Positions 6,639-21,666 are shown, counted from the stretch's first letter. The stretch is 24,000 bases of DNA from Bacilli bacterium (GCA_044346305.1 JBIIZK010000001.1:15525-39524); one strand, 5' to 3'. Notes: generated from the sequence alone by a model not told the origin. Program-made: numbers and translations.

Positions 6639-6662
6639 TTCAATTCTCCAAATATTTTGTAA

Positions 6663-6702
6663 AATTCCATTTAAAAAATGCAATTCCATGTATCATGGAA
6701 TT
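6663..6702. promoter_or_regulatory. Perfect 9-3-9 inverted repeat AATTCCATG-tat-CATGGAATT (6682..6702) plus a third upstream half-site AATTCCAT (6663..6670). Candidate operator or weak terminator
   Basis: Read directly from the sequence. The stem is AT-rich and no U-tract follows it on the + strand, so it makes a poor intrinsic terminator for rlmCD. Three copies of one half-site fit protein binding better. Confidence 0.35.
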
Positions 6703-6757
6703 AATACTTCCACAAACCATATTTAACGCTTTGATAGATAAGGTCTCATAATTTTAG

Positions 6758-6785
6758 TTATCAAGCGGAACTATCAAATGATAAT
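6758..6785 (+). promoter_or_regulatory. Candidate promoter of the XRE-regulator gene
   Basis: TTATCA (6758..6763), a 16-nt spacer, then GATAAT (6780..6785). It is embedded among three TTGATA(G/A) motifs: 6731..6737 forward, with reverse copies near 6757..6765 and 6771..6778. Confidence 0.3.
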
Positions 6786-6797
6786 CGAGCTAGATTT

Positions 6798-7394
6798 ATG
6801 AAAGGAATGGCCTACATGAACACACCATTACAAACGGGAGAACTCATCAGACAAAGACGAAAAGAATTAGGTTTAAGTCAAGGTCAATTGGCAGACCTAC
6901 TAAAGATTCAAAACACAACAATATCCCGATGGGAGACGGGTGAAGGTTACCCGGACATTTCAATTTTGGTTGAATTAACGAAAGTTCTTAAAGTAACGAT
7001 AACTGAGTTACTTGATTCAGAGGATCCGCTCATCACTTCCATACAGGCAATAAAAAAAGACTCTCGACCTTGGGTTAAATATTTATTGTTTGGCATCAAA
7101 ATAATTCTTGTTACGATTCCAATCAGCGTTCATGGATTGTTATACACATTGTCATTACAACAAACGATCGTTAGTTTGGGAACGAATTCTTGGATACCCT
7201 TTGCATTAAAAGCTGGATTTCTTTTTGTGACAACCATAGTCGTTTTATTTAATCGAATCTTTGATCATTGGTTAAAAAAGTTTGTTAATCGTTATGTGAA
7301 GAAATCGGAATCGGGTGAACTCATCCCGAAATATGGATTTTCTTTCTTCATCAAAATGGTAATGATCATGACAGCGTTTGTCATGGTCATCTAA
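6798..7394 (+). CDS. Membrane-tethered XRE-family helix-turn-helix transcriptional regulator
   Basis: The N-terminal LIRQRRKELGLSQGQLADLLKIQNTTISRWETGEGYPDISILVELTKVLKVTITELL is a classic XRE/Cro-C1 HTH. The C-terminal half has about 3 TM segments. The true start may be the ATG at 6816, which has AAAGGA 9 nt upstream. Confidence 0.8.
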   Translation: MKGMAYMNTPLQTGELIRQRRKELGLSQGQLADLLKIQNTTISRWETGEGYPDISILVELTKVLKVTITELLDSEDPLITSIQAIKKDSRPWVKYLLFGIKIILVTIPISVHGLLYTLSLQQTIVSLGTNSWIPFALKAGFLFVTTIVVLFNRIFDHWLKKFVNRYVKKSESGELIPKYGFSFFIKMVMIMTAFVMVI

Positions 7395-7407
7395 GGAGAA
7401 CCATCCC

Positions 7408-8328
7408 ATGGGACCAATCGGACTTGCTAGTTACCTCTATATTTTTGCCTTTTTCTTTTATCTTTGGATTAGCCATCGATTAACTAAGAAACACATTAAA
7501 CCAATAATTGCTTTTTATCCAGCTTTCATTACTCTTGGTATAACTTTAATCAGTGTATTTTTGATCTGGATAATAAGCATTATTTTCAATAACTCGGGAT
7601 TACTTTATCTTCTAGTTTTTATTCTCTATGTTGGTTTGATTCTTACGGCTGAATCTCTCATTGTCACGTTATTGATGATGTTTGTATTGAGAAGAATCAT
7701 TCATGCCTTTTTTATATTTTTAATCATCGTAATTCCGTTAACATCTTGCGGTCCACCAGAAGGTGGCTATGCGGATTCTTTTGTAGGGGTAGTTAAGTTA
7801 AACGAAGGGGAACCAACTAGTGTTTTAATTCCTAATATTGGTTTAGTCGAATTACCCGAATCCGATAGCACACATTTCCTAAATCAATTTGGGGAAGATT
7901 ATGACTATGAAGTACAGCAGGGTGATTTAGTCAATATCCTCATGAGTAAACGTAAGGATAGAGATTACTTTGAATTCGGGGAAGGGATACGCTTTAAGGA
8001 CACAGCTAGAAGCATTTCTGTTTATTACGAACGATCTCAAGGGGTAGGTTTTGAAGTATCTGATGACCAACATTACCTTTTCGGTATTCACCGAAACGAA
8101 GAATTAGACAATCTCGAAGCTGAAGATTTTGTTTTTGTCTATAAAAAATTCTATGAACAAGGAAATATGTATGTACGATTAGTGACTGCTTATCGCGTTA
8201 AGGCAATCGATGATGATTTAGTTTGGCTCCAAATACCTCATTCAATGATCGAGCCAATTTTACAGGGATATTCAACCGAGCAGTATCTTTTTTACGACTC
8301 ACCATTAACGAACACCTTTCTAAACTAG
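7408..8328 (+). CDS. Hypothetical membrane protein: about 5 N-terminal hydrophobic segments and a C-terminal soluble domain of about 190 aa
   Basis: Track ORF 7378..8328, trimmed to the ATG at 7408, which has AAGGAG 9 nt upstream (7393..7398). It starts 14 nt after the XRE gene stop. The last hydrophobic segment ends in LTSC, which is lipobox-like. I did not recognise the C-terminal domain. Confidence 0.6.
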   Translation: MGPIGLASYLYIFAFFFYLWISHRLTKKHIKPIIAFYPAFITLGITLISVFLIWIISIIFNNSGLLYLLVFILYVGLILTAESLIVTLLMMFVLRRIIHAFFIFLIIVIPLTSCGPPEGGYADSFVGVVKLNEGEPTSVLIPNIGLVELPESDSTHFLNQFGEDYDYEVQQGDLVNILMSKRKDRDYFEFGEGIRFKDTARSISVYYERSQGVGFEVSDDQHYLFGIHRNEELDNLEAEDFVFVYKKFYEQGNMYVRLVTAYRVKAIDDDLVWLQIPHSMIEPILQGYSTEQYLFYDSPLTNTFLN

Positions 8329-8386
8329 ATTAATTTGATAATCTCCAACATGAATTTTTTACTCAAAGGACGTATCCGAGTAAAAG

Positions 8387-8464
8387 ATGTTTCTTTACCC
8401 TATCAAAAAGCGTTTATCGTTGTTTGTGTAAACATAAAAGGCCCAAAATATATGTTTCTTTACC
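8387..8464 (+). repeat. 13-nt perfect direct repeat ATGTTTCTTTACC (8387..8399 and 8452..8464) with imperfect extension
   Basis: Read directly. The flanks continue imperfectly (ctatcaaaaag versus aaacacaaag). It lies in the 212-nt non-coding gap that also holds the methyltransferase relic. Confidence 0.6.
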
Positions 8465-8491
8465 AAACACAAAGTTGGATTTAATAGCAAT

Positions 8492-8539
8492 ATGTGGAAA
8501 ACCAAGCACGTGGAGACAGTTGTCCTTCTCGGTTTAAAA
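8492..8539 (+). pseudogene. Relic of the extreme 3' end of a second RumA-family methyltransferase gene
   Basis: Translation of 8492..8539 gives MWKTKHVETVVLLGLK. The C-terminus of the intact gene at 6583..6635 is DMFSQTYHVETVALLSLK. The DNA core cacgt(a/g)gagacagt is shared. No methyltransferase body lies upstream, only stop-riddled sequence. A weaker echo, PKYMFLYQT versus PVDMFSQT, sits at about 8443..8475 in another frame. Confidence 0.45.
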
Positions 8540-8540
8540 A

Positions 8541-9077
8541 ATGAAATCACTAAAAACCCATAAGATTATTCTTAATATCGGTACTTCATTCCTAAGCCTT
8601 GTACTTATCATTCACTATGGTTTTTATGCATTAACCGATGATAAGTATCTAAATTATGAATTGATCAATATTTTTCCTATCGTTCATATGGTCTGGGGTC
8701 TTTGGTTCATCACTTTTTCCTTATTTTTGATTATCATACTGAAGAGAAGTAAATACCTTGTTGTTCCTCTAGTCATCTTTTTTTCTCTTAGTAATCTCTT
8801 GGTAGGCATCCTACGACTTGATCGATATTACGAGTTTATAAGTAATCGTGATCACAAAATCTACGTTGAGCATTATCAGTTTTTGTGGGTAAGATCTTAT
8901 TACTTTTATTATGAGTTGAACTCTTTATATTCTGTTTACATAGGTTATATAAGTGAAGATGAAAATGAATCGTCGTATGAACTTGTAGGTGATCAACTTA
9001 TTTTACGTGAGTTTAATTCGGAACCCTATGAGCTTTATGAAGAAAAAATTATCTATTTGTTGTCATTAAAAGAATGA
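8541..9077 (+). CDS. Hypothetical membrane protein (178 aa, about 3 TM, Tyr/Glu-rich C-terminal tail)
   Basis: Complete ORF with no convincing SD. It is very AT-rich (two hand-counted 60-nt lines give 30-35% GC). No recognised motif. Confidence 0.45.
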   Translation: MKSLKTHKIILNIGTSFLSLVLIIHYGFYALTDDKYLNYELINIFPIVHMVWGLWFITFSLFLIIILKRSKYLVVPLVIFFSLSNLLVGILRLDRYYEFISNRDHKIYVEHYQFLWVRSYYFYYELNSLYSVYIGYISEDENESSYELVGDQLILREFNSEPYELYEEKIIYLLSLKE

Positions 9078-9096
9078 AACCAAAGAGGGTTAACAT

Positions 9097-9486
9097 ATGA
9101 GAAAATCAATTGAAGAATTCAAGGCGTTTATTAATAAGGGCAACGCGGTTGACTTGGCGGTAGGCTTGGTCATGGGGACAGCGTTTAATAACATCATTAA
9201 AAGTTTAGTCACCCATATCATTACCCCTTTTATCTCATTACTTGGGGGAACTTCGCTTGCCCAGTTGTTTATCTTGTTACGAGGTACCGCAACCTATGAC
9301 GAACTGTCAGGAATTTATGTTTTCTCAGAGAACGCGATTGTCTTGGAGTATGGTTTGTTCATTACGAGTGTTGTAGATTTCTTTATCATTGCTATTGCGT
9401 TATTTTTAACCCTAAAACTTCTCGTTTACCTTAATCAATCGGTCAAAAAGGTAAACATCGTTAAAAAAGAAAAAGTGGCTAAATAA
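9097..9486 (+). CDS. mscL: Large-conductance mechanosensitive channel MscL
   Basis: FKAFINKGNAVDLAVGLVMGTAFNNIIKSLVTHIITP is the conserved MscL TM1 region. There is a second TM and a charged C-terminal tail. The length (129 aa) is typical. AGAGGG lies 7 nt upstream. Confidence 0.93.
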   Translation: MRKSIEEFKAFINKGNAVDLAVGLVMGTAFNNIIKSLVTHIITPFISLLGGTSLAQLFILLRGTATYDELSGIYVFSENAIVLEYGLFITSVVDFFIIAIALFLTLKLLVYLNQSVKKVNIVKKEKVAK

Positions 9487-9513
9487 TCTTTTTTGTCTTT
9501 GATTAAATAAAAA

Positions 9514-9536
9514 AAGAGGATGACTACCATCCTCTT
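9514..9536. terminator. Bidirectional intrinsic terminator between convergent mscL and the heliorhodopsin gene
   Basis: 9-bp stem AAGAGGATG / CATCCTCTT with a 5-nt loop. An A7 run upstream becomes a strong U-tract for the minus-strand transcript. The + side tail (ttattg) is weaker. Confidence 0.7.
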
Positions 9537-9559
9537 ATTGTGTGAAATAAAAAAACCGA

Positions 9560-10321
9560 TTAAGCGAGAATGATGCCAAGGAAGACTAACCAGGCTAAGG
9601 TTGATTTTCCAATTAAACTTAACCAAACATAAGACTTTTCACCGTAGATATAATCTTTCCATTTGCCGATACGAGCATATTGCAAGATTTGATTAAAAGC
9701 AAAGAGATTAAAGACTAAGAAGTAGAAGGATAATCCTGGTAAGACAAACCAAGGTAAGAAGGATAAGTCACCAATATTAAGCATGTAGATAACGATAAGA
9801 ACCCAAGGAATTAAACCTGCAATCCAACCAATCCAGTGAGCTGTCCAATCGGTTTTTGTTCTGCTTGGTGGGTTCATTTTTTCCATGAGTAAACCAAGTA
9901 AGTTCATAACTGCGTTAATGCCAAACACACTTAATAAACCTTCGATGGTGGTAATACCAAACATGATGGATAAAAGCACGATCATGATGGATGAAGACAA
10001 TGCATATTCATACCAACGTAATGGGTTAATGCCTTTTTCAACGTTAGCTAAGTATTGTTTCTTAAAAGGAATAGAGATTAAGAAGTGGAAGATGGCACTT
10101 AATAAAATAAAAGAAGCAGCAAGGATGGCAACCGGAAGTTCAAACATCACTTCTGCGGTTGGAGCGTATAAACCTCCTCCAACTGGTCGAAAGAATCGGC
10201 CAACAATTTCTGGCGTAAAATCTCGAAATAAAGGCACGGTCAAGGCGAGAATGAGCAAGGCAATCCCTTGGATAAGGTGAACAACACCCATCTTAAGATT
10301 AAAACTAACTAATTTATTCAT
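9560..10321 (-). CDS. Heliorhodopsin (7-TM retinal-binding protein, inverted topology)
   Basis: 253 aa with 7 hydrophobic helices. Family hallmarks are all present: GVVHLIQ (His15), AIFHFLI (His79), PLRWYEYALSSSIMIVLL (Glu105 counterion, codon 10007..10009), GINAVMNLLGLLMEK, IAGLIPW, and GEKSYVWLSLIGKSTLAWLVF (Ser235 and the Schiff-base Lys239, codon 9605..9607). The TM1-TM2 loop is long (FRPVGGGLYAPTAEVMFELP). The sequence is collinear along its whole length with the 48C12 heliorhodopsin as I recall it. GGAG lies 7 nt upstream of the ATG. Confidence 0.9.
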   Translation of the reverse strand: MNKLVSFNLKMGVVHLIQGIALLILALTVPLFRDFTPEIVGRFFRPVGGGLYAPTAEVMFELPVAILAASFILLSAIFHFLISIPFKKQYLANVEKGINPLRWYEYALSSSIMIVLLSIMFGITTIEGLLSVFGINAVMNLLGLLMEKMNPPSRTKTDWTAHWIGWIAGLIPWVLIVIYMLNIGDLSFLPWFVLPGLSFYFLVFNLFAFNQILQYARIGKWKDYIYGEKSYVWLSLIGKSTLAWLVFLGIILA

Positions 10322-10339
10322 GATAAATCTCCTGAAAGT

Positions 10340-10368
10340 AATATACCATTTTTCTTGAATTGAGTTAA
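10340..10368 (-). promoter_or_regulatory. Candidate dedicated promoter for the heliorhodopsin gene (extended -10)
   Basis: The minus strand reads TTAACT-17 nt-(TGg)TATATT. The -10 is at + coordinates 10340..10345, the TG at 10347..10348 and the -35 at 10363..10368. About 12 nt further on comes AGGAG, then the ATG at 10321. Confidence 0.45.
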
Positions 10369-10383
10369 AGAAAAAACACTCAA

Positions 10384-10400
10384 CGAGTAGGGACTACTCG
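10384..10400 (-). promoter_or_regulatory. Short hairpin spanning the ABC gene stop codon. Possible weak attenuator or terminator
   Basis: CGAGTAG-tcc-CTACTCG on the minus strand (7-bp stem). A T6 run begins only 7 nt after the stem, so this is not a canonical terminator. Read-through into the heliorhodopsin gene is plausible. Confidence 0.3.
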
Positions 10401-12400
10401 ACTCTTGTTTTGATTTGAGAACGATAAATATTGGCGTAAGTTTGGTTGTTATTAATCAATTGAAGATGCGTTCCTTCTTCAACCTTTAGTCCATTTTCTA
10501 ACACAACAATCTTGTCAGCCTTTTTAATGGTAGATAACCGGTGAGCAATGACAATTAAAGTTCTTCCTTTTCTCGCTTTTTCTAATGCAAGTTGAATGCG
10601 TTGTTCGGTTTCCGTATCAATGTTGGCAGTCGCTTCGTCCATGATTAAAATCGCTGGATCATGAACAATGGCTCTAGCAAAGGAAATCATTTGTTTTTCC
10701 CCTACACTTAAATTGGTTCCGTTTCGTGAGACGGGTTGATGGATTCCTTTTTCTAATTTATCTAGTAAAGGACCGCCGCCAATATCACGAAGGATGGTTT
10801 CTGCTTCTGCATCCGTTACTGAACTAATCCCGAAGCGAATATTATCGGCAACCGTTCCTTTAAACATCACAGGATCTTGAATGATGATACCAATATGAGA
10901 ACGGAACGTTCGTTTCGGATATGTGGTGATATCCACGCCATCAACAAAGATTTTCCCCATATCGCCATCTTTAAAATCATAAAACCGTAACAACAAATTG
11001 GTTAATGTGGACTTGCCTGATCCTGTGTGGCCAACCAAACCCACCATTTGCCCAGCCTCAATCTTTAAAGTAATTCCTTTGATAATTGGATGTCCTTTTT
11101 GATACGAAAACCAAACATTATCAAACAAGATATTTCCTTGATAACGAGGAATCTCACTTAAGCGATTGTCTTCTTGTTGACCATCGATGATGGTAAAGAT
11201 GCGTTCGGTTTTGACTAAAGCGTGTTGGAGGTTTCCAATTTCTCTAAACAGTGTCCCAACTGGTTCTACTAAGCGCGATAAATAATCGTTATAAGCATAA
11301 ATGACCCCAGCGGTGATGACCACGCCACTAATGGTGAGGTAACCATAACCAAAGAAGACAACAATCAGTGCGGTTACTAAAGCCCCAACCAAGCGAATCA
11401 TGTTCCACCCTATCGAAAGATGCAGATGTTGTTCTTTCAGGATTTCTTTTTGAGTATCAAAAGACAAACGATCAAATTTATCTTCGATGGTTTTTCTAAA
11501 ATTAAAGATTTGAAGGATGGAAATTCCATTAATAATTTCATTGAGTTGAGCTGTGATCATCGAAGAGTTTTCATTTACTTTCACTGCAAGTTTATTTAAA
11601 CGCTTCACAAAAAAACGCAACCATACGTAAACCAGTGGAAAGAAGACAAAGGTAAAGAAAGCCAAGGTGGCATTTAAATAAAACATCCCGATGTAAGCAA
11701 AGATAACTGCCAAAGAAGCGTTCACCAATAGATTCATGATGGTCGAAAATAAACCCATCATCCCACCAACATCACTGATGACGCGGTTGGCGATTTTCCC
11801 TGATGGTTCGCTTTCAAAGTACGACATCGGCATTCGTTGTAAAGATCGAACCGCATCTTTACGAGCATCTCTCACCATATTCACTGTGATCATCGCTGAA
11901 CTGACACGTTGAATGTAAGTAAAGATGATTTGAAGAATCAATCGAATAAACAACAGCGCAACTAACCAAATCAGAGGATCAACACTGGGTTGATAAAACG
12001 CAAACACTTCATCTCGCGATAACAATGTGACGTCATAGGTAAATACTTGATTTGCTGGTGTGGTGATTGTTAATTGACTTCCGTTCAATGTTTTTTGACC
12101 AATGGCAACGACGTCTTCAGATAAATAATAATTCGTTCCAATCACAACGATAGAAATGGCGTCCCCTGTGGGTTGATCTTGTTGGAAATATCGGCCTTGA
12201 TACTCAACCGCTTCACTCACTTCATTGGTTTGATACCAAGGTCTTTCAATCCCAATCAAATAATCATCCATGATAGATTTAATGAGCAAGGGAGCGAGTA
12301 AACCCAAAACCTGAATCACCAACATCGCTGAGATTGTTAATGTTAACAACCCCTTATATGGAAGGATGTATCGAAATACTTTTTTGATAGTTTTAAACAT
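10394..12400 (-). CDS. ABC exporter half-transporter (TMD-NBD fusion), the consensus-Walker subunit of a heterodimer, with an extracytoplasmic insertion of about 95 aa in loop 1
   Basis: Walker A GHTGSGKST, Q-loop IIQDP, deviant signature LSVGE (10697..10711), Walker B ILIMDEA and H-loop IAHRL. The TMD has six helices. It is 668 aa, against about 580 for typical family members. The extra residues 46-142 fall between TM1 and TM2. Confidence 0.92.
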   Translation of the reverse strand: MFKTIKKVFRYILPYKGLLTLTISAMLVIQVLGLLAPLLIKSIMDDYLIGIERPWYQTNEVSEAVEYQGRYFQQDQPTGDAISIVVIGTNYYLSEDVVAIGQKTLNGSQLTITTPANQVFTYDVTLLSRDEVFAFYQPSVDPLIWLVALLFIRLILQIIFTYIQRVSSAMITVNMVRDARKDAVRSLQRMPMSYFESEPSGKIANRVISDVGGMMGLFSTIMNLLVNASLAVIFAYIGMFYLNATLAFFTFVFFPLVYVWLRFFVKRLNKLAVKVNENSSMITAQLNEIINGISILQIFNFRKTIEDKFDRLSFDTQKEILKEQHLHLSIGWNMIRLVGALVTALIVVFFGYGYLTISGVVITAGVIYAYNDYLSRLVEPVGTLFREIGNLQHALVKTERIFTIIDGQQEDNRLSEIPRYQGNILFDNVWFSYQKGHPIIKGITLKIEAGQMVGLVGHTGSGKSTLTNLLLRFYDFKDGDMGKIFVDGVDITTYPKRTFRSHIGIIIQDPVMFKGTVADNIRFGISSVTDAEAETILRDIGGGPLLDKLEKGIHQPVSRNGTNLSVGEKQMISFARAIVHDPAILIMDEATANIDTETEQRIQLALEKARKGRTLIVIAHRLSTIKKADKIVVLENGLKVEEGTHLQLINNNQTYANIYRSQIKTRVE

Positions 12401-12401
12401 A

Positions 12402-14147
12402 TTAATCTTGACCTTCTAAGCCCGTTAACTGGGTAATGTATTGCCGTTTATACCAACCCTCTTCTCGAATCAAAGATTCATGGGTACCTCGTTGAGTAAT
12501 TTCTCCAGCTTCAAGAACAAGAATTAAGTCTGCTTCTTGAATCGCGGAAAAACGATGGGTGACAATGATGTTCGTTTTATCTTTTCTTAAATCCTTTAAG
12601 TGTTGGATAATCGTTCGTTCGGTTTTCATGTCGACCGCACTTAAGGAGTCATCCAAGATTAGGATTTGTGGATCCTTAATTAATGCTCGGGCAATCGATA
12701 AGCGTTGCTTTTGACCACCAGATAAATTAACACCAGTTTCACCCATCATTGTTTGTAGACCAGATTGTAAGTACGGTAAATCCTTTTCAAAGTCCGCCAT
12801 TTTGACCGCGCTTTTTACCACGTCCACACTTGCGTTTGGATTTCCAATTTTAATGTTTTCATCGACCGGAAGTTTAAATAAGATGTGCGATTGCGGAACG
12901 TAACCAACCAATTGGCGAATATCTTCAATCTTAAAGCGTTCAATCGGTGTGTTGTCGATTAACACAGAGCCTTTTGATACATTGAATTCTCTAAGCAATT
13001 GGCGAATCAAGGTTGATTTACCAGCACCAGTTGGTCCAACCACGCCAATGGTTTGGCCTTTTTGAATAGTGAAGGAAATGTTTTTAATCACCGGTTGTTT
13101 ATCAAATGGATATTGAAAGGTGACACCCTTAAAATCAATGTTCTTAAACCCAATAATCTTTTGTGAACTCGGGGTGTCTTGGACAGTCGGGATATGATTG
13201 AGAACGGTTTCCAAACGATCAACGGCAATCGTTGCCTGATTCAATTGAGCAAAGATGCCAGAAATAGAAATAAATGGACCATAAAGCATCCCAATATAAG
13301 TCACAAAGGTAATCAATCCACCCAAGGTCATGGTTTGTTGGATAATAAAATAAATGCCAAAAGAAAAGGCGAGGGTATAGGCAATACCGTAGATGACTTC
13401 AAAAAGAGGGTTAAACCAGTTTTCAAATTTGACAATGTAACGCCAGGATTCAATGTCATTGTTAATTTCTTGATGTTGTTTCTTTAAATCAATGTCTTCT
13501 TGAACATACGCGCGGATTGCCTTTTGACCTTCGACCGATTCCAACATTTTTTCTGTAAATGCCGCATAAATATCCCGATGTTTTTTAAAGTATTGACGTT
13601 TGCTTTCACGAATTAGATTAAGAATGGTTAACCCTATCGGCATAATCAACACCGAGATGAGAGTGAGTTGCCAACTGATGGTGATCATCATCAAACTTAA
13701 GGTGATCATGATAAAACCAATATTGAAAACAAGTCCTTCAAGTAATCCGGTTGCTGATTGAATGATGGAATCTAAATCACCGGTAACACGAGAAATTAAA
13801 TCCCCCTTGGGATAGGTTTCAAAAAAACTAGAGTCCATGTTAAACAAATGACTTAAGTATCTTTTGCGAAGTGTGTGGGCAAGTTGCTGAGATTTTTTTA
13901 CCGTGGTGTAGTTATAAAGATAACTCAATCCATAACGAACAATAGGAAAGGCAATAAGGGAACCCCCAAGCCACCACAAACTTTCTGTGGTGAGTCCTCC
14001 GGAGATAATGGTGTCAATTGACAACCCTAATAACCAACCAGGGATGAGTGCAAAGACAGCGATACTTACCAACAACACAAACATCAAAAGGTAAGTTTTC
14101 CACTCTTGAATCACATACCAACGAATATGTAAGAATAATTTTTTCAT
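12402..14147 (-). CDS. ABC exporter half-transporter (TMD-NBD fusion), the degenerate-site subunit of a heterodimer
   Basis: Walker A GPTGAGKST, canonical signature LSGGQKQ, and Walker B ILILDD, where Asp500 (codon 12648..12650) replaces the catalytic Glu. H-loop VTHRF. The stop lies 1 nt from the partner's start. Confidence 0.92.
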   Translation of the reverse strand: MKKLFLHIRWYVIQEWKTYLLMFVLLVSIAVFALIPGWLLGLSIDTIISGGLTTESLWWLGGSLIAFPIVRYGLSYLYNYTTVKKSQQLAHTLRKRYLSHLFNMDSSFFETYPKGDLISRVTGDLDSIIQSATGLLEGLVFNIGFIMITLSLMMITISWQLTLISVLIMPIGLTILNLIRESKRQYFKKHRDIYAAFTEKMLESVEGQKAIRAYVQEDIDLKKQHQEINNDIESWRYIVKFENWFNPLFEVIYGIAYTLAFSFGIYFIIQQTMTLGGLITFVTYIGMLYGPFISISGIFAQLNQATIAVDRLETVLNHIPTVQDTPSSQKIIGFKNIDFKGVTFQYPFDKQPVIKNISFTIQKGQTIGVVGPTGAGKSTLIRQLLREFNVSKGSVLIDNTPIERFKIEDIRQLVGYVPQSHILFKLPVDENIKIGNPNASVDVVKSAVKMADFEKDLPYLQSGLQTMMGETGVNLSGGQKQRLSIARALIKDPQILILDDSLSAVDMKTERTIIQHLKDLRKDKTNIIVTHRFSAIQEADLILVLEAGEITQRGTHESLIREEGWYKRQYITQLTGLEGQD

Positions 14148-14215
14148 ACGAGGATATTTAATTGACCAACAGCATTATACAGCAAGAAAAAACCAAAAGA
14201 ATCATGTCAAGGTTA

Positions 14216-14224
14216 TGTTAAAAT
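14216..14224 (+). promoter_or_regulatory. Extended -10 element (TGtTAAAAT) positioned for a leaderless transcript of the MORN-variant gene
   Basis: TGtTAAAAT at 14216..14224, then 9 nt (actttcgat), then the ATG at 14234. No SD lies in between. Confidence 0.4.
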
Positions 14225-14233
14225 ACTTTCGAT

Positions 14234-14494
14234 ATGGTCAAGGCAAAGAAAGCAATCAAAGAAGCTGGTTCTTGGGTGACAAAGTATCACGCCAACGGCA
14301 AGACTGTCTGGTCAAAAGGCCAAATCATTAACGGATTACCGGAAGGTGATTGGCAATGGTTTCGTATTGATGGAACCTTAAAGCGTTCTGGTACTTTTTT
14401 AAAAGGAGAACCGATAGGGACTTGGATTACTTATGATCAATCCGGCAAGCCTTATAAAACCACAAAGAAGGAGATCAACTATGGAAAAAAATAA
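14234..14494 (+). CDS. Small MORN-variant repeat protein (YwqK-like)
   Basis: 86 aa with repeated G-x-W-x-x-(Y/F)-x-x-(N/D)-G units: GSWVTKYHANGKTVWSKGQIINGLPEGDWQWFRIDGTLKRSGTFLKGEPIGTWITYDQSGKP. Confidence 0.65.
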   Translation: MVKAKKAIKEAGSWVTKYHANGKTVWSKGQIINGLPEGDWQWFRIDGTLKRSGTFLKGEPIGTWITYDQSGKPYKTTKKEINYGKK

Positions 14495-16710: not shown

Positions 16711-18038
16711 AGTTACCTGAACTATTTTTAAAACGGATGGAAAAAAACCTTCCCAAGGAAGGTTTTTCTTCATTTGTAGCAAGTTTATTAAAACCCGCTG
16801 TTCAGGGCATAAGGATTCATCAAGATCCTAAACAATTGCTCCATCAATTAGCTCCCAAACCCATCCCATGGCACCCTATCGGTCGTTATCTTGGCGAAAG
16901 TTTAATCAATGGAAACCATCCCTACCATCATGCAGGTGCATTTTATTTTCAAGAACCATCCGCAATGGCAGTGGTGCCAATGATGGACGTTCAACCTGAT
17001 GACATGGTTTTGGATCTAGCGGCAGCACCGGGAAGTAAAACCACTGATATCGCACGGCAACTATCACAAGATGGGTTCTTGGTTGCAAACGATGTTGACA
17101 CAAAACGTTCACAAATTTTAATGCACAACGTCGAACGAATGGGATTAACCCAAGTGGTCGTTACTCAACATGACCCTCACCATCTAAGCAATATCTTCCC
17201 TCACTTTTTTAACAAAATTCTTATTGATGCTCCGTGTAGCGGAGAAGGCATGTTTCGTAAAGATCCCCAAGCCATTGAGGCTTGGTCAATGGAACATGTT
17301 CAAATGTGCGCGGTCCGGCAATCGATTCTATTAAATGCTGCAACAAAATTACTTAAGTCGGGTGGCACCATTGTTTACTCAACCTGTACTTTTTCATTAG
17401 AAGAAAACGAACAATTAATACAAAACTTTATTCAACTTAACCCAATGTTTAAAGTAATCACACATCCAATTCAAACGATGTTTGATTCGCAAACCACCCA
17501 AGGTATTGGCGTCAAACTTTGGCCTCATCAACTCGAAGGAGAAGGTCATTATGTGGTGATCTTACAACACCAAGGCGTCAAAGAACCAAGAATGAAGTTT
17601 CAACATCGGATGCGAAACCCTATGCCTTCACCGTGGCGAACGTTTGCAAAAGAGACTTTAACCAATCAACGAATTGAACCCAACTTTATGTTAGACGATC
17701 GTTTTTTTATGATTCCAACTCGGTATGCGTATCACCCCGCGTTGCACACCTTACGCGCCGGTGTTTTTTTAGGAGAAATGAAAAAAGATTATTTTTATCC
17801 TTCTCACCACCTTGCTCATGTATTAACCAACCTAGATGTCAAACGATGGGTTAATTTCCGTCATGATGAACAACAACTTATTGCCTACATGCGCGGAGAA
17901 GAAATACAAGTTTCTTTATCAGAAGGTTGGGCACTTGTCACCGTGGATGGATTGTCACTGGGCTGGGGAAAAATCTCCCAAGGGAGAATGAAAAATCATT
18001 ATCCGAAAGGGTTAAGATTAACCCAATCGCGAGTATAA
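16707..18038 (+). CDS. rsmF: rRNA cytosine-C5 methyltransferase, RsmF/RsmB (NOL1/NOP2/Sun) family with a C-terminal PUA-like extension
   Basis: FYFQEPSAM, LDLAAAPGSKTT, DAPCSGEGMFRKDP and YSTCTFSLEENE, which hold the two catalytic Cys motifs. The start overlaps the OsmC stop (ATGA). Confidence 0.88.
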   Translation: MKLPELFLKRMEKNLPKEGFSSFVASLLKPAVQGIRIHQDPKQLLHQLAPKPIPWHPIGRYLGESLINGNHPYHHAGAFYFQEPSAMAVVPMMDVQPDDMVLDLAAAPGSKTTDIARQLSQDGFLVANDVDTKRSQILMHNVERMGLTQVVVTQHDPHHLSNIFPHFFNKILIDAPCSGEGMFRKDPQAIEAWSMEHVQMCAVRQSILLNAATKLLKSGGTIVYSTCTFSLEENEQLIQNFIQLNPMFKVITHPIQTMFDSQTTQGIGVKLWPHQLEGEGHYVVILQHQGVKEPRMKFQHRMRNPMPSPWRTFAKETLTNQRIEPNFMLDDRFFMIPTRYAYHPALHTLRAGVFLGEMKKDYFYPSHHLAHVLTNLDVKRWVNFRHDEQQLIAYMRGEEIQVSLSEGWALVTVDGLSLGWGKISQGRMKNHYPKGLRLTQSRV

Positions 18039-19445
18039 ATCCAAGTAGGCACCACTAGAAGCATCCCAGTCATGGTTTGCATCATAGGCGTTCGTTTGTA
18101 ATTTTTTTAATTTGTTTGGTTGTTGATAAATATCCATCGCTTGATTCATTGCCCAACCCAAAGCATCCCCTGTGTAATGTGAAAAACTAAAACCTGTAGA
18201 TTGCTCACCGTTCATCGGGTAACCTTGAACTGTATCGATTAAACCACCCGTTTCACGAACAATCGGAAGAGTTCCATATCGCTTGGCAATCATTTGGGAA
18301 ATGCCACAAGGTTCAAACAAAGATGGCATTAAGAAAAAATCACTACTCGCATAAATTTGGTGTGCGACCGGATTGTTGTAACCTAGAATTACTCTGACAG
18401 CTTTTGGATACTTATTCTCAAAGTATTTCAATTGGTTTTCAAGATGAGACTCACCGGCTCCAAGGAACATAAATTTTGCTCCAGCTTGAACGAAGTGATC
18501 AAGATTATCTAAAACCAATTGAATTCCTTTTTGGAAGGTAAGGCGACTGACCAAACCGAACAAAGGATATTGAGGATGTTCTAATCCGAAGGTTTTAAAG
18601 AGTTGAGCTTTATTTTTTTCTTTGGTGGTTTGTAATTGTTGACGAATGATCGGGGTGGCTAGGTGAGGATCGGTGAGTGGATTCCATTCATCGGTATCGA
18701 TGCCATTAAGGATGCCACTAAACTTATCACGGTAAAGATACAAAATGGCATGAAGCCCAAAACTTCCCTCATACGTTAACAATTCATTCGCGTGTGTTTT
18801 GGAAACGGTGGTAATCTGATCACAATACACAATCGCTGCCTTTAATGTTGAAGCTTTATCTTGAAAACGCAAGGCACCATTGTCATAAAGTTCGTGACTT
18901 AAACCATAAAAGTCTTCAACAAGGTTACTAGAAAAATCACCATGAAATGCTGGGCTATGAATGGTGAGCACAAACTTCATCTTTTGATAAAAAAGATTAT
19001 GTTTTTCTTTTTCTCTGATTAACACTGGCAACATTCCTGCTGGCCAATCATGGAGATGAACGATGTCTGGTTGGAAACCAATCACCGGCATCATGTGGCG
19101 AACCGCGTGGACAAAGGCAGCCCAACGTTCATGTTCATCAGGATATCCGTACACACCGTCCCGATCAAAATAATAAGGGGCGTCAATTAAATAATACGTA
19201 ATTCCATCGATGATGGTTTTTAAAATGCCAACGGTATGTTTCCGCCATGATAAAAAGACATCGATATGGCCTAAGAACGTGGTCACAATATTTTTTTGAT
19301 ATTTTAAGGATTTGTATAACGGTAAAACGATTGCAACGTCGTGTTTTTGTTTAACATAAGCTTTAGATAGGCTATACACCACATCACCCAATCCACCAAC
19401 TTTGATTAACGGGTTGGCTTCAGAGGCGACCATCAGAATCTTCAT
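18018..19445 (-). CDS. glgA: Glycogen synthase (ADP-glucose type)
   Basis: MKILMVASEANPLIKVGGLGDVVYSL (KxGGL motif), the HDW block and FLMPSLFEPCGISQM. 475 aa. The 3' end overlaps convergent rsmF by 21 nt. Confidence 0.95.
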   Translation of the reverse strand: MKILMVASEANPLIKVGGLGDVVYSLSKAYVKQKHDVAIVLPLYKSLKYQKNIVTTFLGHIDVFLSWRKHTVGILKTIIDGITYYLIDAPYYFDRDGVYGYPDEHERWAAFVHAVRHMMPVIGFQPDIVHLHDWPAGMLPVLIREKEKHNLFYQKMKFVLTIHSPAFHGDFSSNLVEDFYGLSHELYDNGALRFQDKASTLKAAIVYCDQITTVSKTHANELLTYEGSFGLHAILYLYRDKFSGILNGIDTDEWNPLTDPHLATPIIRQQLQTTKEKNKAQLFKTFGLEHPQYPLFGLVSRLTFQKGIQLVLDNLDHFVQAGAKFMFLGAGESHLENQLKYFENKYPKAVRVILGYNNPVAHQIYASSDFFLMPSLFEPCGISQMIAKRYGTLPIVRETGGLIDTVQGYPMNGEQSTGFSFSHYTGDALGWAMNQAMDIYQQPNKLKKLQTNAYDANHDWDASSGAYLDLYSRLG

Positions 19446-20557
19446 TAAATGTTTTCTCCCTGTTTAATATAAAGGGGGATATCTTTGCCTGCAAGAAGTT
19501 TTGTTTTTTCTACACGGACATATTTATCAATGATCGCATGCTGGATGCTGACATCTTTGCCAACTCGTGAATCTGTAAAGATAATGGCGTCTTTGACGGT
19601 TGCTCCAACCTCAATAGTAACGTTACGAGAAATGATTGAATTGATCACGGTGCCATAGATTTTTGCGCCATTGGCAATCATGCTATTTTTAACGATTGAA
19701 GAAGAACCAAAACGAGCAGGGGGTGTGTTGTGTGAAATCGTGTAAATAGGCCAATCATCAGTAAAAAACTTATTTCGGAATCCGTAATCAAGAAACGCCA
19801 TTGAGTTTTCAAAATAACTTTCCAAGCTATCAAAGGGTCTGACGTAACCGGTGTAACGATAAGAGGCAAATGTCTGCTTTTCTTGGGTTAACAAGAAACG
19901 AAGAATTTCTTTAATCCCAAAAGTTGCTGAAATTTTAGGACCCATCTCCATGATTTGATTAAGGAATGATTTTGAAATCACATAAGTATCTAAACTAATG
20001 TCTAGCTCTTCTTTTGTCCCTTGATTCTGAATCATATGACTGACTCGTCCTTGGGTCAACGTTACTGCGTCTGCAAGTAAAAATTGTTTCTTGCCTTGTT
20101 TGACTTTGGTGACAACCAAGGTAATCGGTTCTTGGTTTTCAAGATGCTCTTTGATAATGGGTTTAAAGTCGAGCGTATACAACAGATCGATAGGAGCAAT
20201 CACGATCACGTCTGGTTTATGATCAAGGATAAGCCAGTCATTGGCTTTTAAGTTATTTAAATCGTGATTATATAAAGGGTTGTTTGCGTTCTTTTCGTTA
20301 TACAAGACTTGTTCAAATCCAAGTTTGGTGTTGTTATTAAAGACATTGGTGGACCCTAAGTGTTTCATAATCGAACGTGGCTGGGTTTCAATTAGAATCC
20401 CTACTTTATCAATGCCTGAGTTAGAAAAATTAGAGAGCGTTAGATCCATTAATCCATATCGACCAAGAAAACTTGTTGATCCAAGTGGTCTATTTTCTGT
20501 CAATGGGCCAAGGTTTTTGTTGCCGTGGAGGTTAGCAAACCCCATGATTTTTGCCAT
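19445..20557 (-). CDS. glgD: Glucose-1-phosphate adenylyltransferase, GlgD (non-catalytic/regulatory) subunit
   Basis: It is a paralog of GlgC but lacks the GGxGxRL motif (it has NLHGNKNLGPLTENRPLGSTSFLGRYGLMDLTLSNFSNSGI). It sits between glgC and glgA, as in Bacillota glg operons. C-terminal left-handed beta-helix repeats are present. Confidence 0.9.
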   Translation of the reverse strand: MAKIMGFANLHGNKNLGPLTENRPLGSTSFLGRYGLMDLTLSNFSNSGIDKVGILIETQPRSIMKHLGSTNVFNNNTKLGFEQVLYNEKNANNPLYNHDLNNLKANDWLILDHKPDVIVIAPIDLLYTLDFKPIIKEHLENQEPITLVVTKVKQGKKQFLLADAVTLTQGRVSHMIQNQGTKEELDISLDTYVISKSFLNQIMEMGPKISATFGIKEILRFLLTQEKQTFASYRYTGYVRPFDSLESYFENSMAFLDYGFRNKFFTDDWPIYTISHNTPPARFGSSSIVKNSMIANGAKIYGTVINSIISRNVTIEVGATVKDAIIFTDSRVGKDVSIQHAIIDKYVRVEKTKLLAGKDIPLYIKQGENI

Positions 20558-20559
20558 GG

Positions 20560-21666
20560 TTATGGTTGAACCAACACAATGTTGGTGCCTCCTTGAACAG
20601 ACCGATCAACTTTCATGTTGGGCGAAACAACGACCCGTGAAAGTATGGTGCCACTTTTAATAGTCGCACCAGGCATAATCACTGAATCGGTGACGGTAGC
20701 ACCTTCTTCAATAATCACATCATGGAAAATCACGCTGTGATTAACTGTGCCAAAAATAACCGCCCCTTGATTTACCAAAGAATTTTTAACCTTGGCATGT
20801 TCGCCTAGATATTGAGGTAGACTTCGGGTGTCTTCTGTAAACAATTTTAAATCATCGTTCAGTAATAATGATTTAGCATCGGTTTGATCAATCAAATCCA
20901 TGTTTGCTTCCCAAAGAGAATCAATCGTGCCAACATCTCGCCAATAACCTTTAAATGGATACGCTAATAATCGTTTCTTCTGTTTAAGTAAGTTTGGAAT
21001 AATGTTTTTTCCGAAATCGTGTTCTGAAGATTCATCTTTGGCGTCTGCGATTAACGCTTGTCGAAGGTCTTTGTAATTAAAAATATAAATCCCCATCGAT
21101 GCCAAGGTAGATGTTGGTGAGGATGGTTTTTCTTCAAACTGAACAACAAAGTTTTCTTCGTCTACAGTCATTATTCCAAAACGAGAAGCTTCTTTTTTTT
21201 CAACGTTAATGACAGCCACGGTTAAATCAGCCTTAGCTTGTTTGTGTGCTTCTAACATGAACTGGTAATTCATCCGATAGATGTGATCACCAGATAAAAT
21301 GAGAACATAAGATGGTTTTAAGTTATCGAGAAAATCAATATTCTGATAAATGGCATCCGCAGTTCCACGGTACCAAACATTACCTTCTTCGGTTTGCCGA
21401 GGTGGCAACGTTGCGGTTAAAGAATGGATACCATTCAAACCCCATTTTTCTCCATTGCCAATATAGTTATTTAGCAAGATAGATTCGTACTGGGTTAAAA
21501 CTCCAACGGTATCTATGCCGCTATTGGCGCAATTTGACAAAGGAAAATCAATAATTCGATATTTACCACCGAAGTTAACAGCGGGTTTTGCTATTTTCTT
21601 GGTTAAGGTTTCGAGGCGTGTGCCTTTACCACCTGCAAGCAACATGGCTACAAATTCTTTTTCCAA
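20560..21666 (-). CDS. glgC: Glucose-1-phosphate adenylyltransferase catalytic subunit
   Basis: VAMLLAGGKGTRLETLTKKIAKPAVNFGGKYRIIDFPLSNCANSGIDTVGVLTQY. TTG start at 21666 with AGAGGTGA 6 nt upstream. Confidence 0.95.
   Translation of the reverse strand: MEKEFVAMLLAGGKGTRLETLTKKIAKPAVNFGGKYRIIDFPLSNCANSGIDTVGVLTQYESILLNNYIGNGEKWGLNGIHSLTATLPPRQTEEGNVWYRGTADAIYQNIDFLDNLKPSYVLILSGDHIYRMNYQFMLEAHKQAKADLTVAVINVEKKEASRFGIMTVDEENFVVQFEEKPSSPTSTLASMGIYIFNYKDLRQALIADAKDESSEHDFGKNIIPNLLKQKKRLLAYPFKGYWRDVGTIDSLWEANMDLIDQTDAKSLLLNDDLKLFTEDTRSLPQYLGEHAKVKNSLVNQGAVIFGTVNHSVIFHDVIIEEGATVTDSVIMPGATIKSGTILSRVVVSPNMKVDRSVQGGTNIVLVQP

Follow-up and report, generated by a model that had tools for sequence, protein, structure and literature searches.

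A canonical heliorhodopsin gene with its own expression signals in a variable region of a Bacilli genome

Heliorhodopsins (HeRs) act through the binding of partner proteins (PMC11109279), and the described system closest in gene arrangement to the one reported here is that of Ornithinimicrobium cerasi. There, OcHeR binds the OmrDE pump, whose catalytic efficiency and drug transport rise 2-3 fold under light (Cho et al. 2024, PMC11109279). The same study assigns 7 of 448 HeRs to an ATP-binding cassette (ABC) transporter group, which includes Candidatus Izimaplasma sp. ZiA1 with the gene order MarR-ABC-ABC-(73 nt)-helR; photolyases (the TfHeR type) and short-chain dehydrogenases (SDRs) define further published groups of HeR neighbours. 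Here we analyse a heliorhodopsin gene, hereafter HeR, that lies directly downstream of an ABC exporter pair in 24,000 nucleotides (nt) of DNA from a Bacilli bacterium (GCA_044346305.1, JBIIZK010000001.1:15525-39524), a stretch that we call the window. The gene had been recognized from the sequence as a canonical heliorhodopsin with its own expression signals. We find that it is a genuine but ordinary canonical heliorhodopsin, by its sequence a new member of a known family, and that it probably has no fixed functional link to the multidrug efflux pump beside which it lies.

HeR encodes 253 amino acids on the minus strand, a point on which the original prediction was silent (all coordinates are collected in Table 1). 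Its single Pfam match is PF18761, Heliorhodopsin (E 3.4e-79, 266 bits against a cut-off of 26.7), which covers residues 5-250 and positions 2-241 of the 242-position profile. The NCBIfam equivalog NF038020 ('heliorhodopsin HeR') scores the protein at 263 bits, with a cut-off of 100. All six matches in a PDB sequence search at E <= 1 are heliorhodopsins (E 3e-48 to 4e-42), among them TaHeR (6is6), 48C12 (6su3 and 6uh3), 9ljj and 9vfc; no Bac_rhodopsin Pfam match was present at E <= 1. The assignment as a canonical heliorhodopsin is thus borne out over the full length of the protein by both family models, and heliorhodopsin, rather than any other seven-transmembrane (7-TM) family, came out on top in the profile and sequence searches.

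Over aligned residues, HeR is 45% identical to 48C12 and 41% identical to TaHeR. The motifs on which the original prediction relied are found at the predicted residue numbers: VVH15LIQ, AIFH79FLI, RWYE105YALSSS and LS235LIGK239STLAW. In the alignment, His15, His79, Glu105, Ser235 and Lys239 correspond to H23, H80, E107, S237 and K241 of 48C12, and the TaHeR residues match at these hallmark positions too, Lys239 being equivalent to chain position 244. The proposed Lys/Glu/His register is therefore upheld against both proteins, with which HeR shares the Schiff-base lysine, the single glutamate counterion and the His/His/Ser cluster. Across 28 aligned relatives, which reach down to 49% identity, none of the five hallmark residues varies. 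Equivalents of N16, Q26, N101, R104, W105, Y108, E149 and E230 of 48C12 are kept; in HeR numbering, R102, W103, Y106, E147 and E228 are also kept. The proteins differ in that 48C12 has a six-residue deletion in the region from TM1 to extracellular loop 1 (ECL1) that is not seen in HeR. They also differ in origin: 48C12 is from an actinobacterium and TaHeR from an archaeon, whereas the window protein belongs to a low-GC freshwater lineage of Bacillota/Bacilli. Glutamine synthetase, which adjoins 48C12 (PMC11109279), is not encoded in the 24-kb window.

An AlphaFold2 model built on the alignment of 28 relatives has a mean predicted local distance difference test score (pLDDT) of 85 and a predicted template modelling score (pTM) of 0.78. 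It fits a 7-TM heliorhodopsin fold: seven helices are modelled (residues 2-28, 64-83, 100-120, 126-149, 160-181, 193-215 and 224-252), and the long TM1-TM2 loop, ECL1, forms the predicted beta-hairpin, with strands 38-48 and 51-61. The top ten Foldseek matches in the PDB are all heliorhodopsins (TM-score 0.85-0.89, root-mean-square deviation 1.9-2.8 Å), the scores reaching 0.88-0.89 for TaHeR (6is6) and 0.87 for 48C12. In a computational positive-inside count, 13 lysines and arginines fall on the N-terminus and intracellular loops (ICL1-3), compared to 3 on ECL1-3. The basic loop residues are K86, K87, K95 and R102 in ICL1, K148, R154 and K156 in ICL2, and R217, K220, K222 and K229 in ICL3. 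This count supports the inverted, N-in orientation, with which a lysine-rich N-terminus had been said to agree, but the term 'lysine-rich' was overstated, the first ten residues containing just K3 and K10. A type-1 microbial rhodopsin was considered as an alternative identity and ruled out by the absent Bac_rhodopsin match and by the fold comparison, in which type-1 rhodopsins are distant matches (E >= 2e-3, TM-score 0.49-0.66, 8-15% identity).

A database search returned 814 HeR homologues at E <= 1e-20. The nearest are 93-96% identical, and some of these already bear the NCBI name 'heliorhodopsin HeR'; an identical protein is encoded on two ENA metagenome contigs with unchanged local gene order. 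A scan of species-representative genomes yielded at least 587 relatives, the nearest from metagenome-assembled genomes (MAGs) labelled Bacillota, Bacilli or 'Bacillales' with river or lake isolate names, and the farther ones from Acholeplasmatales and Izemoplasmatales. A literature search combining heliorhodopsin, Bacilli and freshwater found no report. The ratio of non-synonymous to synonymous substitution rates (dN/dS) is 0.04-0.11 relative to six orthologues, with synonymous sites saturated (dS >= 1). HeR is 93% identical to orthologues whose adjoining RsmF, DUF4256, DUF975 and GlgA proteins reach just 60-76%. These values indicate that the gene is under strong purifying selection.

Two further observations concern heliorhodopsin coding DNA in this and related genomes, whose loci we denote by L numbers. 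Some Bacillota MAGs contain two divergent heliorhodopsin paralogues. Those of L013 (3673-4443, minus strand, and 8001-8756, plus strand) lie 3.5 kb apart on opposite strands and are 43% and 68% identical to the query HeR, and L019 and L046 are heliorhodopsin paralogues of one MAG. Within HeR itself, a 131-amino-acid open reading frame (ORF) runs on the plus strand, and a similar ORF occurs in L008; we rejected it as a gene, as it is most likely an antisense by-product of conserved HeR coding DNA.

The flanking signals suggest, with good probability as part of the stand-alone reading set out below, that HeR forms its own transcription unit with a conserved extended -10 promoter, a Shine-Dalgarno sequence and a terminator. 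The first two had been predicted, and both are present: GGAG precedes the ATG by 7 nt, and the promoter scan returned a sole TG-extended match in the region. In ten orthologues, the alignment columns of the TG, the TAT--T core and the GGAG do not vary; the DNA farther upstream in the same ten orthologues cannot be aligned and belongs to different genes. Because the -10 box ends 7 nt before the Shine-Dalgarno sequence, the leader would be very short, approximately 12-14 nt. Beyond the stop codon, the intrinsic terminator folds with -13.1 kcal/mol (z = -3.0). It had been described as strong and as shared with mscL, the convergent gene on the other side. The terminator is real, but the sharing is only partly right: the U7 run follows the stem on the HeR strand only, the tail on the mscL strand being AUUGUGUG. 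The structure is thus the terminator of HeR and at best a weak bidirectional one. At the other end, the 72-nt spacer between HeR and the upstream ABC gene holds the conserved extended -10 box and a small hairpin over the ABC stop codon. The hairpin is suggestive of a weak terminator of the ABC operon; since the whole spacer folds no better than shuffled sequences (z = -0.6), we keep it as a possible one.

We propose that HeR encodes a functional canonical heliorhodopsin, transcribed on its own and serving as a stand-alone light-sensor or regulator, and assign this reading a probability of about 0.85. Its steps are modelled on established work on 48C12, TaHeR, AbHeR, TfHeR and OcHeR. HeR would bind all-trans-retinal at K239, with E105 as the counterion, and absorb green light, upon which the retinal would photo-isomerize to 13-cis and the protein would enter a long-lived O-like state with no net ion transport. 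The signal may then be passed on by direct protein-protein contact via the basic cytoplasmic loops, the adjoining exporter being just one candidate target. No carotenoid- or retinal-synthesis genes were found in the 24-kb window, and the retinal is therefore probably taken up or made from a precursor. Most HeR-only genomes are without de novo retinal synthesis and have to take retinal up or convert it from carotenoid or retinol (bioRxiv 10.1101/2021.02.01.429150), and HeRs are reported to be efficient at capturing exogenous retinal (Shihoya et al. 2019, cited in bioRxiv 10.1101/2021.02.01.429150). The genes flanking HeR differ between relatives, so a partner would not be fixed by gene order at the locus; this variability is why we regard HeR as a stand-alone component. 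Three points weigh against the proposal: every functional step rests on homology; the stand-alone character is drawn from synteny in MAGs; and the ABC-ABC-helR order matches an experimentally validated trio, so that the partner could be next door in this strain.

The two genes upstream of HeR encode ABC half-transporters with full-length matches to the Bacillus subtilis proteins YheI (BmrC; 8t1p_C, E 6e-125), for the 581-residue subunit, and YheH (BmrD; 8t1p_D, E 1e-128), for the 668-residue subunit. The former has a degenerate Walker B motif, ILILDD, in which the catalytic glutamate is replaced by aspartate, and a canonical LSGGQ signature. The latter has a canonical Walker B glutamate (IMDEAT), a degenerate signature (LSVGEKQ) and an extracellular insert of ~100 amino acids between TM1 and TM2. 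By these features, the pair is a BmrCD (YheI/YheH)-type heterodimeric multidrug exporter with one degenerate ATP site. The arrangement corresponds to that of OcHeR-OmrDE: in both, the two genes of a heterodimeric exporter directly precede helR, in the same order and on its strand; the first subunit bears the Glu-to-Asp exchange, and the second, which has an extracellular insert, is canonical. The 72 nt that separate the stop codon of the second ABC gene from the HeR start codon compare to 37 nt in Ornithinimicrobium (103 nt in O. pekingense) and 73 nt in Izimaplasma. As the published group accepts a 73-nt gap, the spacer here would count as operonic by its authors' standard, and a context of this type has been described before. 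We recovered the Izimaplasma ZiA1 locus independently (L073). Its ABC proteins are just 31-34% identical to those of the window, which suggests that the window arrangement arose independently. The window nevertheless departs from OcHeR-OmrDE in two respects: the adjacency is not kept among 86-93% identical HeR orthologues, and HeR has its own conserved promoter. The original prediction had held that each new heliorhodopsin context is informative; this applies only weakly here, as an exporter followed by helR is already published (PMC11109279) and is not conserved in close orthologues.

Close relatives share a backbone of genes around HeR. One flank comprises glgC-glgD-glgA, rsmF, OsmC, thioesterase, DUF975 and DUF4256; the opposite flank encodes a TrmA-like methyltransferase, an EEP nuclease, a TM2 protein and a hydrolase. 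Comparison with L003, L004, L008, L010, L086 and L090 delimits a variable region at 6640-14430 of the window, from the TrmA-like methyltransferase gene to DUF4256. Its content differs among genomes with 86-96% identical HeR, the variable genes being the ABC pair, DUF1801, HTH_3, DUF4287, GrpB, a methyltransferase, mscL and a 178-residue membrane protein; HeR and its promoter are constant. The window XRE regulator and the 316-residue membrane protein whose gene it overlaps are likewise part of this variable set. In three loci whose HeR is 93% identical to that of the window, the ABC pair is absent. Two of these (L003 and L005) have a 104-residue HTH_3 gene and a 42-residue ORF upstream of HeR, and the third (L004) has two large HTH_3 single-TM proteins and DUF4287 upstream and GrpB downstream. 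In L008, L010 and L086, the ABC pair is present at a distance of 3.5 kb from HeR, behind four genes encoding DUF1801 (on the opposite strand), two HTH_3 proteins and DUF4287; the pairs of L008 and L010 are 86-90% identical to the window pair. An 84%-identical HeR orthologue sits in an unrelated locus, between a MarR/acetyltransferase and a GATase1-like gene, and a 77%-identical one has a divergent glyoxalase upstream and a 306-residue protein and a 195-residue HTH_3 regulator downstream. By this comparison, HeR is kept at loci with and without the pump, and we conclude that the direct adjacency of pump and HeR in the window resulted from an insertion or deletion in the variable region.

These comparisons bear directly on the possibility that HeR is a light-dependent activator of the adjoining exporter, binding the transmembrane domains (TMDs) of the pump via its cytoplasmic loops as in OcHeR-OmrDE; illumination would then raise ATPase efficiency and drug export ~2-3 fold. 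The same-strand gene order and subunit architecture of the published OmrD-OmrE-helR trio (PMC11109279) argue for such a role, as do the inclusion of Izimaplasma ZiA1 in the ABC group and the recurrence of the same pump within 3.5 kb of HeR in L008, L010 and L086. However, the pump is missing beside the 93%-identical HeRs, and is parted from HeR by four genes, one of them on the opposite strand, where it does recur; the 84%-identical orthologue sits in an unrelated locus. The conserved HeR promoter and the hairpin over the pump stop codon also count against this role. Among 90 loci, exporter TMD genes are not enriched near HeR: they account for 2/371 ORFs within 1.5 kb and 3/338 beyond 5 kb, or 0.5-0.9% of ORFs within 3 kb and ~1% farther off. 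The published ABC group itself comprises just the 7 of 448 HeRs mentioned above. We consider this role unlikely, though it deserves serious attention. A clearly smaller chance falls to the nearby XRE-family regulators, for which HeR would be the sensory input, acting through the TM segments of these membrane-anchored HTH_3 transcription factors. Within the close lineage (HeR identity of 75% or more), HTH_3 genes lie within 3 kb of HeR in 11 of 17 loci and make up 18/109 ORFs within that distance compared to 0/97 farther away. They also recur in three non-identical forms. The window form has 198 residues and three predicted TM segments, with a related 195-residue protein in L090 (9142-9729) and an orthologue of the window regulator in L090/L091 at 47% identity. 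A second form of ~420-490 residues, with a single TM segment and a large extracellular part, is encoded upstream of HeR in L004, L008 and L010. The third, of 104 residues in L003 and L005, is without the membrane and extracellular parts and is apparently an internal-deletion remnant of the ~420-residue gene with the same end position, which suggests that the regulator is dispensable. Moreover, the 60-75% clade shows no such association and the <60% clade shows it in only 2 of 59 loci, so that a general enrichment of XRE regulators near HeR was rejected: it is real just within a closely related lineage, whose loci share ancestry and do not give independent counts. The jackhmmer profile used for the survey started from a single domain and probably covers a narrow range. 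Variable regions of Bacillota genomes very commonly encode XRE regulators, and we found no precedent for such a link in the HeR literature consulted. The partner probability beyond the shares given to the pump and to these regulators is assigned to partners encoded elsewhere.

Two other explanations concern the protein rather than its neighbours. HeR might be a retinal-less relic, or have a light-independent role, in an organism unable to obtain retinal. The window offers no carotenoid or retinal biosynthesis gene, and most HeR-only genomes are without the full pathway (bioRxiv 10.1101/2021.02.01.429150). Yet Lys239, Glu105 and the histidine pair are invariant, dN/dS is low, the closest MAGs bear surface-water isolate names (the habitat being read from these names), and the reported efficiency of HeRs in capturing exogenous retinal, quoted above, speaks against a relic as well. 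We therefore see little room for a relic, even less than for a relay to the XRE regulators. Least probable of all is that HeR carries ions, like a proton-transporting viral heliorhodopsin, instead of acting as a regulator. The shared fold and the conserved counterion would allow for it, but HeR groups within a Bacillota/Mollicutes clade of bacteria rather than with viral sequences. Its closest characterized relatives, 48C12 (45% identity) and TaHeR (41%), are not known to pump ions. PMC11109279 cites a viral HeR that transports protons; OcHeR shows no ion pumping in that study.

Table 1 Features of the heliorhodopsin locus, in window coordinates.
Feature	Coordinates	Strand	Basis or remark
HeR (heliorhodopsin) coding sequence	9560..10321	minus	253 amino acids; ATG start; TAA stop at 9560-9562
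Shine-Dalgarno GGAG	10329..10332	minus	7 nt 5' of ATG; invariant in ten orthologues
Extended -10 element TGgTATATT	10340..10348	minus	promoter scan, TG-extended match; invariant in ten orthologues
Weak -35-like TTAACT	10363-10368	minus	
HeR intrinsic terminator	9504..9536	minus	9-10 bp GC-containing stem 9514-9536, then U7 run
Small hairpin CGAGUAG/CUACUCG	10384..10400	minus	overlaps upstream ABC stop codon; U-rich run after 7 nt
ABC half-transporter, BmrD/YheH-like	10394..12400	minus	668 amino acids; ABC_membrane + ABC_tran (Pfam)
ABC half-transporter, BmrC/YheI-like	12402..14147	minus	581 amino acids; ABC_membrane + ABC_tran (Pfam)
XRE-family regulator, overlapping a 316-residue membrane protein without Pfam match	6798..8328	plus	regulator of 198 amino acids; Pfam HTH_3 and three predicted TM segments (hydropathy)
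mscL, large-conductance mechanosensitive channel	9097..9486	plus	Pfam MscL, 2e-28; convergent with HeR
178-residue multi-TM protein	8541-9077	plus	no Pfam match
131-residue ORF inside HeR	9885-10280	plus	antisense
86-residue ORF	14234-14494	plus	sub-threshold MORN_2 match; overlaps DUF4256 gene start
Glycogen synthesis cluster glgC-glgD-glgA	18018-21666	minus	NTP_transferase x2, Glyco_transf_5; conserved backbone with related MAGs

Clustering of every ORF up to 4 kb from HeR, carried out for 83 loci, revealed no universal neighbour, no family being present in more than 14 of the 83. The commonest families are the TrmA-like methyltransferase (14 loci), ABC-F (11), SDR (10) and photolyase (8). 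Photolyase genes lie upstream of HeR, within 4 kb, in eight Bacillota loci. SDR genes (adh_short) occur within ~3 kb and always on the same strand (L014, L017, L018, L020, L025, L026, L029, L031, L065 and L079); a neighbouring short-chain dehydrogenase has been suggested in the literature as a candidate retinol dehydrogenase. The known SDR, photolyase and GrpB contexts are met again in other clades of Bacillota and not in the window, where none of photolyase, SDR, glutamine synthetase, MerR, TerC, DUF2177 and DUF2238 was found within the 24 kb. HeR is of the same protein family as the TfHeR-photolyase and SDR-linked heliorhodopsins but differs from them in its surroundings. The mscL gene adjoins HeR in the window and in L001/L002, the two identical ENA contigs, and is absent from all other orthologous loci; being confined to the window version of the locus, it was rejected as a functional neighbour. 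Copies of the 178-residue multi-TM protein, 76-77% identical, stand beside HeR in L004 and L010. The 86-residue ORF scores 22 bits for MORN_2, against a cut-off of 29.6; in L003 and L004, an 88-residue gene lies at the equivalent site upstream of DUF4256. MORN-HeR fusions are known in other Firmicutes; no link was found between this MORN_2-like ORF and HeR.

Taken by itself, the gene is one more orthologue in a family of hundreds, which the NCBI annotation model would name automatically. If the pump were nonetheless light-tuned as in Ornithinimicrobium, this would be a third independent recruitment of such a pump, and if the XRE regulators were the true partners, this freshwater Bacilli lineage would possess a two-protein, in-membrane relay from light to transcription that is undescribed for any heliorhodopsin. 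The comparative picture, of a nearly invariant HeR and an invariant promoter amid a small region of gene turnover, cautions against inferring function from a single adjacency. It also offers natural presence/absence variants with which the model that a heliorhodopsin tunes an ABC exporter may be tested outside Actinobacteria.

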